From Candidatus Woesearchaeota archaeon (lineage in GTDB: Archaea; Nanobdellota; Nanobdellia; Woesearchaeales; DSVV01): DNA of 38,593 nt. This document shows, in pieces, positions 1-20,559 of the stretch. The stretch spans positions 1-38,593 of the forward strand of contig JAFGRM010000043.1 in NCBI GenBank assembly GCA_016935125.1, written 5' to 3'. Every line of letters begins with the position of its first letter. Position 1 is the stretch's first letter. The notes under the pieces were generated by a model. That model saw only the letters and a program-made list of their open reading frames with translations, made no database searches and was not told where the DNA came from. The position numbers and the translations under genes were made by a program.

Positions 1-112
1 AAACTTGATATAAATACAAGAAAATTAATTTAACTAACTAAAGATTAACTACTTAATGTTAGTTTATTTTACAACAAAAGATTTATATACTAAATATGTT
101 AAAAGATTTTGC

Positions 113-406
113 ATGCATGATTATGAAGGCTTTATCAAACATGGCAACAGGATGCTGATCTACACGTATTCTACCAAGCACCTGCTGAAAAAAGATAAAG
201 TAAGGTTCTATTATGCCCTAAAAGGCAGGGATGGCAAATCTGGAGTCGTAAAGAGCATGAAGATTGTCCACCTTGGAAGGACTGTCCTCATGATCCACGA
301 ACGTTATGATGAAGATATCCAGCAGTTCATGAAAGTATGGAACCTGCCTTACACAAGAAGAAAAGCGGTTGTAGACGAAGAGTTAATGAGAGGTGGTCCT
401 CCATGA
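113..406 (+). CDS. Small basic hypothetical protein, possibly a ferredoxin-like (Cas2/VapD-like) fold
   Basis: ORF with TATA-like TTTATATA at 82-89 upstream of ATG 113 (alternative ATG 152). Its stop overlaps the next start (ATGA 403-406). The fold is only a guess from the alternating beta/alpha pattern. Confidence 0.55.
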   Translation: MHDYEGFIKHGNRMLIYTYSTKHLLKKDKVRFYYALKGRDGKSGVVKSMKIVHLGRTVLMIHERYDEDIQQFMKVWNLPYTRRKAVVDEELMRGGPP

Positions 407-3400
407 AGCCCTCTTACTCCTCCATGAGAGATCATTCCATAACAACTGCAGGAATCATTGTGTTTATCTCAGTTACCCTCATGTTGGTTATCCTTGCATC
501 AGCTTCTGCAATCGCCATACAATACACAGTCTGCAGCACAGGATGCAACTTCACCACCATAACAGAAGGCCTTGATAACATCTCTGGCTCTGCAAACACG
601 CTCCTCATAAACGGGTCTGGATCCTATCAAATGGCAGGCACAACAACATCCCCTGTCAATGCCTCATCCAGCTCAGGCGCTATCGAGATCAGCGCCCATG
701 ATGTTGTCCTCGACTGCAACAACACAAACATCACAGGCAACAGCTCAGGATACGGCATCTATGCCTACGCAAGCAACATAACGATAAGGAACTGCAGGAT
801 CGACAGCTACGCATCAGGCATATTCCTAAATGATGTCAGCGGCAGCTCAAGCATCATCAATGACACCATATCCAGCTGCTCATACGGGATAAGGCTGACG
901 AACACAAACAGCTCAGCCATAGTTAGAAACACAATAAGCTCTGCACTGACAAGGGCGATCCTGTTCAACTCAGCAGTAAACAACAGTGTCATCAGCTCAG
1001 CCATAACATCATCTGCTGGCGATGTTGAATCTGCTGGCAGCGGGACTACAAACAGGCTAATCAACACGACATTCGACTCGACCAAGCTAACATTTTCTGA
1101 GAATGCCAATTTGTATGTAAACTGGTTCGTGACTGCATATATCAATGATTCATATGGCAACCCGGTAAACAACACGACAGTGAACATAACTGACACATAC
1201 TCTTCGGCAGTAAGCCTGCTCACTACAGACGCAGACGGATATACAGAGCAGGTAAACATAAGCCAGTACATGATAAACAATACAGGCAGGCTTTATTTTT
1301 CAAACCATACGTTCCATGCAGACAACGGGACAAGCTCGGCAACAGCAGCAGTGAACATAACAGGATCAATGACAGTGGGGCTGACATTTGATGTGATGGC
1401 AGCTTCTCTGAGCATAAATTACCCGCAGAACAACTCAAACCTCGGAAACGACACAGAATGGGTGATGCTGAACATAACGACAGATGAAGATGCATACTGC
1501 AGGTACAGCAACAGCAGCGAAAGCTTTAACTTCAGCTCAGAAGGACTTTTGTTCACGACAACCGGCGGGCCTGTGCACGGGATAAACTATTCAGGCCTTG
1601 CGCCGAACACCAACTATACTATATATTACAAGTGCAACGACAGCGCAGGAAATATCAACAGCCCGGGCATCATGCACAGGTTCAGCGTCAATATGACACC
1701 TGACACGAGCCTGCCTATAATAAGCAACATCTCGGCCGACAGGACAAACACCACTGCAACAATAATATGGGATACTGACGACATGAGCAACTCGACAGTC
1801 TATTATGGCACAAGCGCATCAGCACTGTCATCCAGCGCATCGAACTCGACCATCACAAGCGCACATTCAGTTACCTTAAGCGGGCTCTCATCAAACACTA
1901 CCTATTACTACAATGTAAGCTCATGCAACGCATTTGGCTACTGCAACACCTCAACCACAGGCAGTTTTACAACGCTTGACCTTACACCGCCAGTAATATC
2001 TGCTGTTAGCACTGCCGCAACATCTATCTATTCCGCAAGGATAACCTGGACCACTGAAGAGGGCGCGACAAGCACTGTCAGGTATGGGACAGCTTCAGGG
2101 ATCTATACTGCAACAGCAAGCAACTCAAGCATGCTTACAAGCCATTCTATGAACATCAGCGGCCTTGCAGCATCAACAACATATTATTACAGGGTGAACA
2201 GCACAGACGCAGACGGCAACAGCATAGAGAGCGGCGAATACAGCTTCTCGACACTTGCCGAGCCAGACTTGACAGCGCCGACAATAACATTTTCCATAAC
2301 AAATATGTCCACAGTCGCAGAGTGGAGAAACATCCTGTTGCAGGTCACGACAAACGAGGCGGCAACATGCATAGTTGACGCACAGAAGCTCGGGATTACT
2401 ACATCAACAGCTGACCTTGCCATGGCTTCATCATCATCGACAGGCTACCTTGTGCATACAAGGTATTTCAATGCAAGCGCTGACTCAGTAGGGATTGACA
2501 ATTATTTCACAGTCAAATGCACAGACTCAAACATGAACTCTGGGACAAACGTAATCTTCTTCAGGCTCTATGACACGACCCTGCCCACTCTTGCATTCAG
2601 TGCTCCCACTCCTCAAGACTCTGGGCACACAAGCAACCAGACACTTGCAGTAAGCGTCACTGCAGGCGAACCCCCTTATACAGGCTACCCAAAGATTAAG
2701 GTGGACAGCGCGGCTGCTGCATCCATGACAGCCGGCAGCGGGCTTGGCTACACATATACATCAGGGACCCAGGCAGAGGGGGACCATACGTTCATAGTCT
2801 CGATGCGCGACGCAAAGGGAAATGAGATAAACTATACAAGGACATATACCATAGATATCACAGAGCCGGAGATCACTGTATACTTTCCAGATGGAAAAAA
2901 GATAAAGAACTGCAACGAAGTCACGCTGAATGTCAGTCTTGATGAAGAGGGAAGCTGCGAATACGAGCTGTTCGAAGACCTTGAGGATGATTATGACGAC
3001 TGCGTAACAGATTGCGACGATGACTATGACGACTGCGTCGAAGATGCCAATGAAGAGGATACGACTGCTGAAAAGACAGCGGCAAAAGCCATATGCACAG
3101 ATGATAAGGAATCATGCGAAGAGACATGTGAAGATGACAGGTATGACAGCAAGAAAACAGGCTCATTGAAGCTTGAATACGGCATCTCTGACTGCTATGA
3201 CAACTGCGACGACCTTGAGGACGACTGCAAGGACGCATGCAGCGACACAAGGTCATTATGCTATGCTTCTGCATCTACAAGCGAGGCAAGGGAAGACTGC
3301 GAGGATGATTATGACGACTGCAAGGATGACTGCAGCGACGACCTGGATGACTGCATAGATGAATGCGACGACGAGGAGGAGTTCAATCTCTTCAAGAGCC

Positions 3401-5082
3401 TTGACACTACCTGCTTCTCAGACGGAAGCTACATGATAACATACTCCTGCCTGGACCTTGCCTTTAACCTGGTAGAGGAGAATGTCTCATTCGAGATCGA
3501 GGACACTACACCGCCTGTCATCCTATCTCAGGAGCCGAACGGCACGACGATTTACAGCTCATCTGCAACCCTCAGGGCATACACAAGCGAGGACTCATTA
3601 TGCAAGTTCTCAGAATCTGACAAGAGCTACGCTTCTATGGAATACTACTTCATCCAGACAGGCACTGCCCACAGCTTTACAATGAATAACCTAAATGACG
3701 GGGATTATACATATTACGTCAGGTGCAATGACACCAGAGGCAACGTGATGGCCTCTTCAGGCGTGATCAGGTTCACAATTGACTCAACTAGCATCTCGAG
3801 CAACCTCGCTGTCAAGTCATTCGCGACAATCGAGGCGAACACCTCTGCCACATTTAAGCCTGACAAGCCAGAGATCGCAATAACTGAGCTTGATATTATT
3901 CTAAACGAGAACGTCAACAACGCAAAGTTCAGCATAAGCAAGGCTGCTGACAGGGGATCTGTCCCTGCACCTGCTGACACGCCCTACCAATACATAAACA
4001 TCGAAAAAGAGGGTGTGATGAACAGCCAGATAAAAAGCATAATAATACAGTTCAAGGTCGACAAGGCCTGGCTCAGCTCAAACAGCCTCAATTCAGAGCA
4101 TATATACCTAAGCAAATACACCACGCAATGGAACGATATACCTACAACACAAGTAAGCGAAGACAGCGCATACTACTATTATGAGGCTGAGGTAAGCGAC
4201 CTGAGCTTCTTTGGCATAATGGCCAAAAAGCCTGTAGAGCAGGCCGCAGATCAGCAGGCAGCTGACAGCACACCTGGGCAGGCAGAAAAGATACCTGTAG
4301 ATGGAGACTCCTCTAATGCAGCAGCTGGAACAGGAGAAGAGAGCAAGGCTCCAGATGTCGAAGAGCCTGTCGAGATCAGCGACAAAGGAGGCTCATCGCT
4401 CCTTATATGGATACTCCTTTTGTGTGTTGTGGTTGTGGGAGGCGGTCTTGCCTTCTATTTTGTCTACATGCATAGACACCCCCAACAAGACTCCTCGGCA
4501 AGTCCGCAGATACAACCAACACGGGATTCTATGGCTGCAGCAGGCACAAGCCCTGTTGCAGCTGTTTCCTCCTCTTCTGAGGACACAGGTGCTTATGGAG
4601 GTTCCCTTTCTTCTGAGGGGCCTGATGAGGTTGCAGCATATATACATGAATCACTAAAGTCTGGCGCAGCCCCTGAGGATGTAAGAAGGATCCTTGTCGA
4701 AGCTGGCCATGATGAGAACAGGATTGACATGCTCTTGGACCAGGTCTCAGCCGACAATGCAGACAATGAGCTGGTGAACTACATCAGCGCATCTCTTGCA
4801 AGAGGACAAAAGCCTGATGATGTAATGAGCACGCTTGTTGATGCAGGCCATGACCCTGCAAACATCAAAGCATTGATGAATCCGCTAACAGAACATTATG
4901 AAAGGCTCTTTTCTGACAAGGAACTTGTAGACTATGTCTATAAGTGCCTGAGTGAAGGGCTTTCTGGCAAAGAGATAGAAAAGCTTCTTGTTGATGCAGG
5001 CCATCCTGCTGAAGACATGAAGATGCTCATAGATAAGGTAAAGAACGAAAGATGGTTTATCCAATCAGGCAGATCAGAATAA
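403..5082 (+). CDS. Giant cell-surface/S-layer-like protein: signal peptide, parallel beta-helix, Fn3/Ig-like repeats, Cys/Asp-rich insert, PGF-pre-PGF domain, TM anchor, repeated cytoplasmic helical domain
   Basis: RBS GAGGTGG and ATGA coupling favour start 403. Hydrophobic N-terminus; LDCNNTNITG/NITIRNC beta-helix motifs; Fn3-like W-TD..STV.YG..H.V.L.GL...T.YYY repeats; YQYINI..IQFKVDKAW..SFFGI (PGF-pre-PGF); TM LLIWILLLCVVVVGGGLAFYFVY; many N-x-S/T sequons. Confidence 0.85.
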   Translation: MKPSYSSMRDHSITTAGIIVFISVTLMLVILASASAIAIQYTVCSTGCNFTTITEGLDNISGSANTLLINGSGSYQMAGTTTSPVNASSSSGAIEISAHDVVLDCNNTNITGNSSGYGIYAYASNITIRNCRIDSYASGIFLNDVSGSSSIINDTISSCSYGIRLTNTNSSAIVRNTISSALTRAILFNSAVNNSVISSAITSSAGDVESAGSGTTNRLINTTFDSTKLTFSENANLYVNWFVTAYINDSYGNPVNNTTVNITDTYSSAVSLLTTDADGYTEQVNISQYMINNTGRLYFSNHTFHADNGTSSATAAVNITGSMTVGLTFDVMAASLSINYPQNNSNLGNDTEWVMLNITTDEDAYCRYSNSSESFNFSSEGLLFTTTGGPVHGINYSGLAPNTNYTIYYKCNDSAGNINSPGIMHRFSVNMTPDTSLPIISNISADRTNTTATIIWDTDDMSNSTVYYGTSASALSSSASNSTITSAHSVTLSGLSSNTTYYYNVSSCNAFGYCNTSTTGSFTTLDLTPPVISAVSTAATSIYSARITWTTEEGATSTVRYGTASGIYTATASNSSMLTSHSMNISGLAASTTYYYRVNSTDADGNSIESGEYSFSTLAEPDLTAPTITFSITNMSTVAEWRNILLQVTTNEAATCIVDAQKLGITTSTADLAMASSSSTGYLVHTRYFNASADSVGIDNYFTVKCTDSNMNSGTNVIFFRLYDTTLPTLAFSAPTPQDSGHTSNQTLAVSVTAGEPPYTGYPKIKVDSAAAASMTAGSGLGYTYTSGTQAEGDHTFIVSMRDAKGNEINYTRTYTIDITEPEITVYFPDGKKIKNCNEVTLNVSLDEEGSCEYELFEDLEDDYDDCVTDCDDDYDDCVEDANEEDTTAEKTAAKAICTDDKESCEETCEDDRYDSKKTGSLKLEYGISDCYDNCDDLEDDCKDACSDTRSLCYASASTSEAREDCEDDYDDCKDDCSDDLDDCIDECDDEEEFNLFKSLDTTCFSDGSYMITYSCLDLAFNLVEENVSFEIEDTTPPVILSQEPNGTTIYSSSATLRAYTSEDSLCKFSESDKSYASMEYYFIQTGTAHSFTMNNLNDGDYTYYVRCNDTRGNVMASSGVIRFTIDSTSISSNLAVKSFATIEANTSATFKPDKPEIAITELDIILNENVNNAKFSISKAADRGSVPAPADTPYQYINIEKEGVMNSQIKSIIIQFKVDKAWLSSNSLNSEHIYLSKYTTQWNDIPTTQVSEDSAYYYYEAEVSDLSFFGIMAKKPVEQAADQQAADSTPGQAEKIPVDGDSSNAAAGTGEESKAPDVEEPVEISDKGGSSLLIWILLLCVVVVGGGLAFYFVYMHRHPQQDSSASPQIQPTRDSMAAAGTSPVAAVSSSSEDTGAYGGSLSSEGPDEVAAYIHESLKSGAAPEDVRRILVEAGHDENRIDMLLDQVSADNADNELVNYISASLARGQKPDDVMSTLVDAGHDPANIKALMNPLTEHYERLFSDKELVDYVYKCLSEGLSGKEIEKLLVDAGHPAEDMKMLIDKVKNERWFIQSGRSE

Positions 5083-7033: not shown

Positions 7034-7174
7034 GCGGGGGTGCCGGAGTGGCCAAACGGGACAGACTCAAGGCATTTGAGTGCAGAGTGCTGCAGGATGC
7101 AGTTCGATGAAGATATCATTTGTGGGCCATCTGTTGGCTTAGTGCCTACGAGGGTTCGAACCCCTTCCCCCGCA
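7034..7174 (+). tRNA. tRNA-Leu(CAA) with a 57-nt intron at 37/38 (7072-7128)
   Basis: Acceptor GCGGGGG/CCCCCGC+A; anticodon stem ACAGA/TCTGT; anticodon CAA 7068-7070; long variable arm; T-arm GAGGGTTCGAACCCCTT; BHB central helix CTCA/TGGG. Confidence 0.95.
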
Positions 7175-7388
7175 CCTTAACCTTTTATTCTAACAGTGCT
7201 CTACACAATATTTGTGTAGTATTCAGTACTCTATACATAATATTCTTGTGGTTCTCTGATAGGCTAAAACAGAAGCAGACTACCTGTCCGAAAAAGGGAA
7301 ACTGAAAACAATGGCAAAAATTGCCGACAGCCAAAAAAAACAGGCATATCCAATACATTTTAATATCAGAATGCTGGATTTTATTATC

Positions 7389-8510: not shown

Positions 8511-9623
8511 TTATTTGCGGAACAGTTCCTGGATATCTTTCTTGAACCGAAGAAAGCTGTCCTCTTCGATCGCCTGCCTCATCCTCTCAATAAACCTCTG
8601 CATGAAGTATATGTTATGGTATGTCGCAAGCCTTTTTCCTACACCTTCCTTGTTCTTCAGAAGATGCCTTATGTATGCCCTGCTGAAGTTCTGGCAAGCA
8701 AAACAGCGGCATCCCTCTTCTATCGGGCCAGTGTCTTCTGAATACCTCTTCTGGCCCAGCCTCAACCTGCCTTTGAATGTAAAGAGCGTGCCGTGCCTTG
8801 CATTCCGTGTCGGAAAAGTGCTGTCAAAGCAATCATAGCCCATGGCAACTGTCTCCAACATATCAGCAGGGTTTCCTACGCCCATAACATAATGCGGCTT
8901 CTCTTTTGGAAGAAGAGCAGAAGTCTTCTGTAAAACATCATACATCGACTCGATCGGCTCGCCTATCGCAAGCCCTCCCTGCGCGATCCCGTCAAACCCA
9001 AGCCTTACCATGAACTCTATGCTCTTTTTTCTCATGTCATAGTCAAGCCCTCCCTGTGCAATGCCAAACAGGAGCTGCTTATCTTTCTGGTCGATCTCAT
9101 CATGATGCACCTTGCATCTCCTTGCCCACGAGTGAGTCCTAAGCGTCTTTGAACGCACTTCTCTTATGCTGTCTCCTGCATGAGGTACATCATCAAGGCA
9201 CATCGCAATATCTGACCCGATTGTGTGCTGAACATCCATTGCTTTTTCTGGTGTTATCTCATATGTGATACCATTGAAAGGTGACCTGAAAAATGCAGCT
9301 TGATGCGTGCTTTTCATTATCATATCGTCATCAAGGGACTGGAACCCGCCGCTGTCAGTGAACACCACTTTATCCCAGTTCATGAGCTTATGGATACCTC
9401 CTGCCCTTGATATCAGGTCAAGACCTGGCTGCCATGAGAGGATAAGTGAGTTTGATATGACAGCTTCTGTGCCAATCTTGCCTAAGTCTTCTGAATCAAG
9501 ACACTTTACGCTGCCTTTTGTAGCAACAGGCATATAGAAAGGGGTCTTTATCCTGCCATGCGATGTCTGAAGCTCGCCTACGCGCGCCCCTGTCCTGCTG
9601 TCCTCAGCTAAAATCTTATACAT
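8511..9623 (-). CDS. tgt: Queuine tRNA-ribosyltransferase (bacterial/eukaryotic-type tRNA-guanine(34) transglycosylase)
   Basis: ARVG..TPFYMPVAT, TDSGGFQ, LFGIAQGG, GGLAIGE, YVMGVG, DCFDSTFPTRNARHG, Zn site CRCFAC..H; 370 aa with no PUA domain. Confidence 0.93.
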   Translation of the reverse strand: MYKILAEDSRTGARVGELQTSHGRIKTPFYMPVATKGSVKCLDSEDLGKIGTEAVISNSLILSWQPGLDLISRAGGIHKLMNWDKVVFTDSGGFQSLDDDMIMKSTHQAAFFRSPFNGITYEITPEKAMDVQHTIGSDIAMCLDDVPHAGDSIREVRSKTLRTHSWARRCKVHHDEIDQKDKQLLFGIAQGGLDYDMRKKSIEFMVRLGFDGIAQGGLAIGEPIESMYDVLQKTSALLPKEKPHYVMGVGNPADMLETVAMGYDCFDSTFPTRNARHGTLFTFKGRLRLGQKRYSEDTGPIEEGCRCFACQNFSRAYIRHLLKNKEGVGKRLATYHNIYFMQRFIERMRQAIEEDSFLRFKKDIQELFRK

Positions 9624-20233: not shown

Positions 20234-20404
20234 GACTAAAACCTGACCCCAAATTTATATAAATGTTTCTAAACCCAGCATTTCCATTTAGAGATACTTG
20301 GTTATGGCAAAAACCTTTATATATCCCCTGTTTTTCTCAAGAACCAGATAGGCCATGCACGTAAGACAAGCCATGCACAAGCCATGCAAAATAAGCCATA
20401 TTAC

Positions 20405-20559
20405 GGGGCTGTAGTATAACCTGGCTAGAATAGCTGGCTCCAGTTTTGGAGCGATGAGCTGCAGGAACCCTGCGGCGATGAATAAAGCTGCGGTCTGTTG
20501 AAGCCTTACCGCTTCAAGGAAGAGACCAGCGGATCTGGGTTCGAATCCCAGCAGCCCCA
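20405..20559 (+). tRNA. tRNA-Trp(CCA) with an 81-nt intron at 37/38 (20444-20524)
   Basis: Acceptor GGGGCTG/CAGCCCC+A; anticodon stem GCTGG/CCAGC; anticodon CCA 20440-20442; T-arm CTGGGTTCGAATCCCAG; followed by a T-run terminator. Confidence 0.95.
20444..20524 (+). ncRNA. Putative intron-encoded box C/D guide RNA for tRNA-Trp positions 34 and 39
   Basis: TGGAGC-G-ATGA puts D+5 on C34; GGTCTG-TTGA puts D+5 on C39; C-like CGATGA lies between. Euryarchaeal tRNA-Trp introns are known to guide these two positions. Confidence 0.65.

Follow-up and report, generated by a model that had tools for sequence, protein, structure and literature searches.

A conserved single-K-turn module in the tRNA-Leu(CAA) intron of a Woesearchaeota archaeon, a candidate cis-acting guide for methylation of C34

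The intron of a tRNA-Leu(CAA) gene from Candidatus Woesearchaeota carries a conserved K-turn module with an antisense stretch that matches the anticodon arm of its own tRNA. We read this intron as a cis-acting, self-targeting, single-K-turn box C/D-like guide for Cm34, the pairing of which would compete with the splicing fold, and we put the probability of this reading at roughly 0.6. The gene lies in a stretch of 38,593 nucleotides (the window), which is contig C73 of a 1.26-Mb genome that is 93% complete. Two intron-bearing tRNA genes, tRNA-Leu(CAA) and tRNA-Trp(CCA), are located in the window. Both were missed by ARAGORN at default settings, which gave no tRNA in the window, and introns had to be allowed to find them. 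Rfam at the gathering score detected the tRNA-Trp and missed the tRNA-Leu. The principle of the tRNA-Trp intron appears in tRNA-Leu(CAA), elongator tRNA-Met and tRNA-Phe in a reduced form with a single K-turn, which is widespread within a large uncultured archaeal order.

Anatomy of the introns in the window

The features of the two genes are given below, with guide positions counted upstream from the box.

7034..7176, + strand: tRNA-Leu(CAA) gene with one intron at 37/38 (ARAGORN, introns allowed)
7065..7071, + strand: Leu target, nt 31-37 (A31 7065, C32 7066, U33 7067, C34 7068, A35 7069, A36 7070, G37 7071), read from the sequence; faces the guide at 7076-7081
7072..7128, + strand: Leu intron, 57 nt (sequence, ARAGORN and intronless orthologue)
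7076..7082, + strand: whole Leu guide element; guide TTGAGT 7076-7081 (positions 7..2 upstream of the box), antisense to nt 36..31, and spacer G 7082 (position 1, unpaired)
7078, + strand: Leu guide position 5, a G that pairs with C34
7083..7086, + strand: Leu D'-like box CAGA, with its GA abutting the hairpin; non-bulged strand of the K-turn
7087..7105, + strand: Leu hairpin, 19 nt, 8 positions with one U-U and a 3-nt loop; canonical stem of the K-turn
7106..7113, + strand: Leu C'-like box, with the bulge GAU 7106-7108, the sheared-pair GA 7109-7110, then AGA
7123..7129, + strand: 3' side of the Leu splicing motif, read from the sequence; TGGG 7123-7126 pairs with C32-A35 (4-bp central helix), and the 3' bulge CC|A 7127-7129 contains the 3' splice site
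20405..20559, + strand: tRNA-Trp(CCA) gene, intron 20444-20524 (Rfam tRNA 40.9 bits; ARAGORN)
20447..20483, + strand: Trp module, with guide TGGAGC 20447-20452, spacer G 20453, ATGA 20454-20457, 19-nt hairpin 20458-20476, GAU bulge 20477-20479, GA 20480-20481 and AT 20482-20483
20492..20524, + strand: second arm of the Trp intron only, GGTCT 20492-20496, then G, a hairpin at 20498-20517, GGAAG and AG

The exon junction of the Leu gene is fixed at 37/38 by the intronless orthologue L025 (...ACTCAAG|ATCTGT...). In both introns the module is made up of 6 nt antisense to nt 31-36 followed by a single G, the box NNGA, a hairpin of 19 nt and GAUGA, the last being part of a GATGAA at 7106-7111 in Leu and at 20477-20482 in Trp. 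The antisense lies immediately 5' of the D'-type box, with the single unpaired G in between. The GA of the NNGA box adjoins the hairpin, the GAU bulges after it, and the GA that follows is able to form tandem sheared pairs. The outer hairpin bases also pair, which results in 8 bp in Trp and 8 positions with one U-U in Leu, and the bases past the sheared pairs are able to pair as well (C-G in Leu, U-A and A-U in Trp). As predicted from these pairings, the layout is that of an internal C'/D'-type K-turn, or of a circularly permuted C/D motif with the terminal stem closed by a loop.

Most of this anatomy had been proposed by a first-pass annotation. The Leu intron and the parts assigned to it were read directly at their coordinates, with the junction backed by the intronless orthologue, and the succession of antisense, one G, box, 19-nt hairpin and GATGAA was found in both introns as described. 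The fifth nucleotide upstream of the box, said to pair with C34, is indeed a G opposite C34 in both genes. The splitting of the hairpin into 3+5+3+5+3 nt was a misparse, since the outer 3+3 bases pair and the 3-nt bulge is actually formed by the GAU within GAUGA. A hairpin of 'exactly 19 nt' holds for the two window introns, but among relatives the stems vary from 3 to 8 pairs and the loops from 2 to 6 nt. The D-like and C-like boxes do form a covarying K-turn, but their register needed correcting.

Canonical archaeal box C/D guides have two motifs and guide duplexes of roughly 9-12 bp; sR47 of Pyrococcus abyssi has a full set of boxes. In the Leu intron, the tandem sheared G-A K-turn of a box C/D guide is present as one motif. 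A second K-turn or GA-GA motif or a terminal box C/D pair was looked for in this intron and none was seen; a covariance model built from the module (R1) gives one module per intron. No intron matched an Rfam C/D family at the gathering score, and matches at E up to 10 were at chance level only (e.g. SNORD66 with 15.8 bits against a gathering score of 32). Directly upstream of the tRNA-Trp gene (20350-20400), the word GCCATGCA occurs three times within about 40 bases, and an incomplete copy (AGCCAT) comes next.

Conservation and covariation among relatives

The Leu, Trp and elongator-Met genes were used to search 60 genomes of the same family and order, and the introns were extracted. Intronless genes (L025 for Leu; L074 and L089 with a CAU anticodon, L089 being the intronless Met orthologue), introns above 160 nt, matches off the expected tRNA position and identical duplicates (L010 is identical to L009) were dropped before counting. 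The sample then comprised 61 unique Leu(CAA), Trp and elongator-Met introns from the 60 relatives and this genome. The succession of guide, NNGA, hairpin, bulge and GA could be parsed in 55 of the 61 introns (Leu 14/18, Trp 21/23, Met 20/20). Among the parse failures, L011 has a degenerate antisense with the K-turn still there, L020 has a GGGUG guide and a mismatched stem, and L035 and L059 have a 2-bp stem with a UUCG loop, guide position 2 of L059 being a G opposite C31. The two others are L026, a 25-nt intron that lacks the module, and L065, an intron of 146 nt. In seven relatives (L012, L017, L021, L024, L028, L030, L032), the tRNA-Leu(CAA) gene is interrupted by another intron further upstream, within the anticodon stem or the D region, because of which ARAGORN mislabels these genes as Arg, Trp, Glu, Gly or Ser.

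The spread of the Leu module was assessed with a strict pattern (exon end, 1-10 nt, Leu antisense, N, NNGA), and the same pattern written backwards served as control. The strict pattern matched 94 of 401 genomes sampled from the phylum, corresponding to 71 of 281 genera, and the backwards control gave 3 matches. Two of the 94 genomes (G284 and G358) are unpublished; when both are left out, the count is 92/399. Thirty of the matches were fetched, and a full K-turn together with the tRNA-Leu 3' exon was found in 26, three of which (L135, L138, L139) belong to other orders in the class. The remaining four are three non-tRNA chance matches (L136, L137, L148) and, in L157, a short motif of atypical form.

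In 55/55 parsed introns of three tRNA families, C34 is faced by a G at position 5 upstream of the box, which is the box C/D register, with the target opposite the fifth base upstream of box D/D'. Position 1 is unpaired and is a G in 49 of the 55. Guide positions 2-7 and nt 31-36 form a mean of 5.73 out of 6 Watson-Crick pairs, and slid registers (-3 to +1) reach at most 1.58 pairs. The guide duplex, in which the 6-7 bases immediately before the box face nt 31-36/37, has 5-7 bp. The loop from target to guide ranges from 1 to 9 nt, with a constant spacing from guide to box. The antisense also changes in step with the anticodon arm, as the first-pass annotation had noticed for the two window introns, and nt 31, 35 and 36 are all tracked. 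Guide position 2 is a U with A31 in Leu and in 18 Met introns, and a C with G31 in all 21 Trp and 2 Met introns (L084, L087). In these two Met introns, an internal 'ACUC' copy of the target is unchanged while guide position 2 tracks G31. At nt 35-36, the pairs are AA with UU in Leu and CA with UG in Trp, guide positions 6-7 being UU for A35 A36 and GU for C35 A36, respectively. The Met guides are less well fitted: U36 is faced by a Watson-Crick partner in 6/20, by U in 13 and by G, giving a G-U pair, in 1, and on average these guides match the loop of Leu more closely than that of Met (5.55 vs 5.12 of 6).

The K-turn itself was compared in an alignment of 54 modules (MAFFT), in which GA...GA is invariant. 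The boxes in the 55 introns are AUGA (40), AAGA (6), CUGA (4), CAGA (2) and others (3), and the bulge is GAU in 38 and AAU in 10. Relatives such as L007 have a perfect CUGA and AUGAAGA, and the boxes of the window's Leu intron are CAGA and AUGAAGA. In the hairpin, 89.5% of cells are paired in the 54 sequences and both-side changes are seen in 7/7 pairs. The hairpin covariation score of 0.533, compared with 0.145 in shuffles, was reached by 0/500 shuffles, and slid partners gave no more than 0.156. The 4n-4b position is paired in 34/55 introns against a shuffle mean of 25.1. These shuffle statistics overstate the support, because the sequences are related and not independent. Nevertheless, there are 44 distinct stems in the 55 introns, which is hard to explain unless the predicted pairing is maintained. 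A loose K-turn expression run over the genome gave 2773 matches vs approximately 2140 in shuffles and was discarded as uninformative.

Taken from these comparisons, the case for more than chance is carried by conservation and covariation, the motif alone being insufficient. Chance resemblance, with no conserved element at all, could draw on the frequency of the loose motif in the genome, but it is refuted by the conservation, the covariation and the 3 control matches vs 94 genomes, and we regard its probability as negligible. Judged by sequence, the element is real and conserved, and selection acts on its pairing with its own anticodon arm at the box C/D register; the selection is argued from its conservation across many families of the order. 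The alignment of introns from relatives that the first-pass annotation had proposed came out in its favour for Leu, Trp and Met, with a conserved module and an antisense that tracks the anticodon arm.

Further tRNA hosts, competing folds and protein partners

When the genome was searched with R1, strong matches were obtained for Trp (39.5 bits), Leu (32.4 bits) and elongator Met (C80:133-168, 31.5 bits), all three of which are training sequences of the model. A fourth match of 16.5 bits lies in the 37/38 intron of tRNA-Phe(GAA). Weak matches outside tRNA genes (≤16.2 bits) appeared protein-coding by eye and were dropped. The two further tRNA genes are located outside the window:

C80:81-210, - strand: elongator tRNA-Met(CAU), miscalled as Ser by ARAGORN
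C64:43786-43938, - strand: tRNA-Phe(GAA), with two introns in this genome and the module in the 37/38 intron

In the Met intron of this genome, AUGAGU stands opposite nt 31-36, and CUGA follows right after the second GAUGA. The Phe intron was compared with seven Phe introns of relatives, the relatives named being L097-L100, L106 and L108. Beside the same K-turn, the Phe guide is complementary to the 3' splice junction and nt 38-43, and not to the anticodon loop. Beyond the junction, its partner is the 3' strand of the anticodon stem, with U39 opposite guide position 5. Duplexes of 9-10 bp are formed in L106 and L108, and in the latter a compensatory change has turned a G-C pair into C-G at intron position -1. 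Re-aiming to U39 is what a portable guide module predicts. The portability claimed in the first-pass annotation thus extends to elongator tRNA-Met and, with a different aim, to tRNA-Phe.

The second arm of the Trp intron is complementary to the 3' splice junction (-2,-1|38-40). It tracks the last two intron bases (AG/CU, AU/AU, UC/GA, UU/AA) and nt 38-41, and a covarying hairpin and GGAAG come after it. Only in Trp does complementarity to the 3' junction exceed that of shuffles; when the Leu and Met introns were searched for a guide to position 39, it was not above the shuffle level (Leu 3.89 vs 3.77, Met 3.74 vs 3.38). No conserved box follows the Trp second arm among relatives. A UUGA after the arm was considered as box D and rejected, relatives having UCAA or GCUC instead. 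A possible role of the second arm is to keep the 3' strand of the anticodon stem open.

At 37/38, the Leu precursor has the helix, 3-nt bulge, 4-bp helix and 3-nt bulge of a canonical bulge-helix-bulge intron, the 4-bp helix being TGGG with C32-A35 and the bulges A36-G37-G and C-C-A38. It differs from a canonical intron of this kind in the extra conserved K-turn and antisense, both of which compete with the splicing fold. Guide duplex and splicing helix are mutually exclusive, as they use the same anticodon-loop bases. In the known tRNA-Trp case, the guide pairing competes with the splicing fold in the same way. The computed energies of the two folds (ViennaRNA) are -19.2 vs -18.5 kcal/mol for Leu, -39.0 vs -40.9 kcal/mol for Trp and -17.4 vs -17.8 kcal/mol for Met, a gap of 0.4-1.9 kcal/mol. 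In relatives, the central splicing helix is often imperfect at C34, which is mismatched in 13/21 Trp introns, and the guide pairing is cleaner than the splicing helix.

The genome encodes fibrillarin (273 bits), a Nop-domain protein (176 bits) and L7Ae (98 bits). All three families named as partners in the first-pass annotation are thus encoded, but the Nop5 is incomplete:

C95:6548-7306 (L002:1486-2244), - strand: Nop5, 252 aa, outside the window

Residue 7 of this protein aligns to residue 113 of Sulfolobus Nop5, and the N-terminal domain of about 110 residues is therefore absent. This domain is the one that binds fibrillarin. No remnant coding for it was seen in the 265 nt upstream of Nop5, and a search of the rest of the 93%-complete genome with the N-terminal domains of two relatives gave nothing convincing. 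Pfam NOP5NT was uninformative here, as it falls below the cut-off in archaeal control genomes too. Across the order, the Nop5 open frames range from approximately 246 to 505 aa, and several genomes with a short frame (e.g. G050, G054, G032, G298) retain the intron modules. An AT-rich promoter-like stretch lies immediately upstream of Nop5. The fibrillarin gene is about 2 kb away from it, with two PRC-barrel-like genes and a membrane-protein gene in between.

Relation to known guides and interpretation

The closest known system is the box C/D guide in the intron of euryarchaeal pre-tRNA-Trp, found in Haloferax volcanii and as Pyrococcus sR50 (PMC4090602, PMC11408192, PMC7994747). In the passages cited, it is termed a unique example (PMC4090602) and is the sole case given for intron guides (PMC11408192, PMC7994747); the 2014 and 2024 reviews there have tRNA-Trp as the unique or only named tRNA with an intron guiding the modification of its own tRNA (PMC4090602, PMC11408192). 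The first-pass annotation knew of no guide in a tRNA-Leu intron, and the literature searched gave no report of one in a tRNA-Leu or tRNA-Phe intron. As far as the euryarchaeal guide is described in these passages, the Leu module shares with it the position in the 37/38 intron of its own target, the aim at C34 and the expected partners L7Ae, Nop5 and fibrillarin. It differs in that the host is tRNA-Leu(CAA), that there is one K-turn instead of C/D plus C'/D', and that Leu has a single short guide, no position-39 guide and no Rfam family match. The euryarchaeal arrangement of two guides, for positions 34 and 39 with their own boxes each, was found in none of the Leu, Met and Trp introns here. 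The Leu module works like the known tRNA-Trp intron guide, yet with one motif instead of two it falls short of full membership of that class.

Two other RNAs are related to the Leu module. Pyrococcus abyssi sR47 is a C/D sRNA acting in trans on C34 of tRNA-Leu(CAA) (PMC5558902), and in that description the target nucleotide and the tRNA species are identical to ours; sR47 is a separate, trans-acting RNA, whereas the guide proposed here lies inside the intron of its own target. The elongator tRNA-Met intron of Nanoarchaeum equitans is a stable, abundant C/D-like RNA, for which no target is proposed in the cited passages (Randau 2012, PMC3491384). It resembles the Leu intron as a non-Trp tRNA intron of a DPANN archaeon with C/D-like boxes and gives an RNA that is stable in cells, but the tRNA is Met and not Leu, those passages give no guide register, and the likeness is one of description.

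If the module acts as a guide, the K-turn would be bound by L7Ae, which would recruit Nop5 and fibrillarin. The guide would fold back on the anticodon loop in an intramolecular duplex that closes a loop of 1-9 nt containing the 5' splice site, and fibrillarin would then 2'-O-methylate C34. Because the guide duplex and the bulge-helix-bulge share anticodon-loop bases, the precursor would have to switch from a 'modify' fold to a 'splice' fold, and methylation would precede removal of the intron. The same module would serve tRNA-Trp and elongator tRNA-Met, which have C34, and would be re-guided in tRNA-Phe(GAA) to put position 5 at U39. By analogy, the guide reading is favoured by C34 of tRNA-Leu(CAA) being a known box C/D target in Pyrococcus abyssi, as given in the cited part of PMC5558902. 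The single K-turn, the duplex of 5-7 bp, the Nop5 that lacks its N-terminal domain and the mismatches at U36 of Met count against it.

The first three of these points keep a non-catalytic role for the K-turn alive. Here, it would be a structural element bound by L7Ae, which aids precursor folding or the splicing endonuclease or stabilises the excised intron, and the pairing would shield or time the anticodon with no methyl transfer. Such a role would sit well with one K-turn, a short pairing and a Nop5 deprived of its fibrillarin-binding domain. In the splicing fold, moreover, the K-turn tops the intron stem and an internal copy of the target ('CUC') pairs with the guide, and the Nanoarchaeum tRNA-Met intron RNA is, in the passages cited, stable and abundant (PMC3491384). 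It leaves unexplained, however, why the guide pairs with nt 31, a base that has to be released from nt 39 beforehand, and why, in L084 and L087, it tracks nt 31 of the tRNA rather than the internal copy. Nor does it account for the exact fifth-base box C/D register in 55/55 introns while the loop length varies freely, or for the same register on U39 in Phe. We consider a purely structural role unlikely, though worth keeping in mind. It is also conceivable that the module is mainly an intron core, mobile or inherited, which came to be distributed over tRNA genes, that any guiding is done in trans by the excised, possibly circular intron, and that the similarity to the anticodon is a remnant of the insertion site. 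The near-identical UUGAGUG-AUGA-G in Leu and most Met introns, even where it mismatches U36, the occurrence of the module in four tRNA species and the intronless orthologues for Leu and Met would agree with this. On the other hand, the guides of Trp and Phe have been adapted fully to their hosts, position 2 and nt 31 changed jointly in two Met introns, and conservation across many families of the order implies selection. A mere intron core seems to us quite improbable.

A wider version of the self-targeting guide reading, put forward tentatively and at less than even odds, is that Woesearchaeota-type DPANN archaea have a family of one-K-turn intron guides re-aimed between four or more tRNA species, namely at C34 of tRNA-Leu(CAA), tRNA-Trp and elongator tRNA-Met and at U39 of tRNA-Phe(GAA), with a 'methylate first, then splice' switch and a minimal RNP. 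If so, this RNP would consist of a single K-turn and, in this genome, a Nop5 that lacks the fibrillarin-binding domain. Functional guides of this kind would explain the retention of these introns by giving them a selectable function, and they would be movable and re-tunable between tRNA genes. They would also be a naturally minimal substrate with which to ask how large a part of the two-motif box C/D particle site-specific methylation requires.

Two protein-coding genes in the window are mentioned for completeness. A tRNA-guanine transglycosylase-like gene of 370 aa (8511-9623, - strand) adjoins the tRNA-Leu gene. Its two best named matches are Candidatus Woesearchaeota MAGs (47-50% identity) and the other best named matches are bacterial (35-44%); because the best named matches are bacterial apart from these two MAGs, the sequence suggests a bacterial type of enzyme. 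At 337-5082 (+ strand), a predicted surface protein of 1581 aa is encoded, which has repeats rich in Ser/Thr/Asn, an acidic block rich in Cys/Asp and a membrane anchor at its C terminus.
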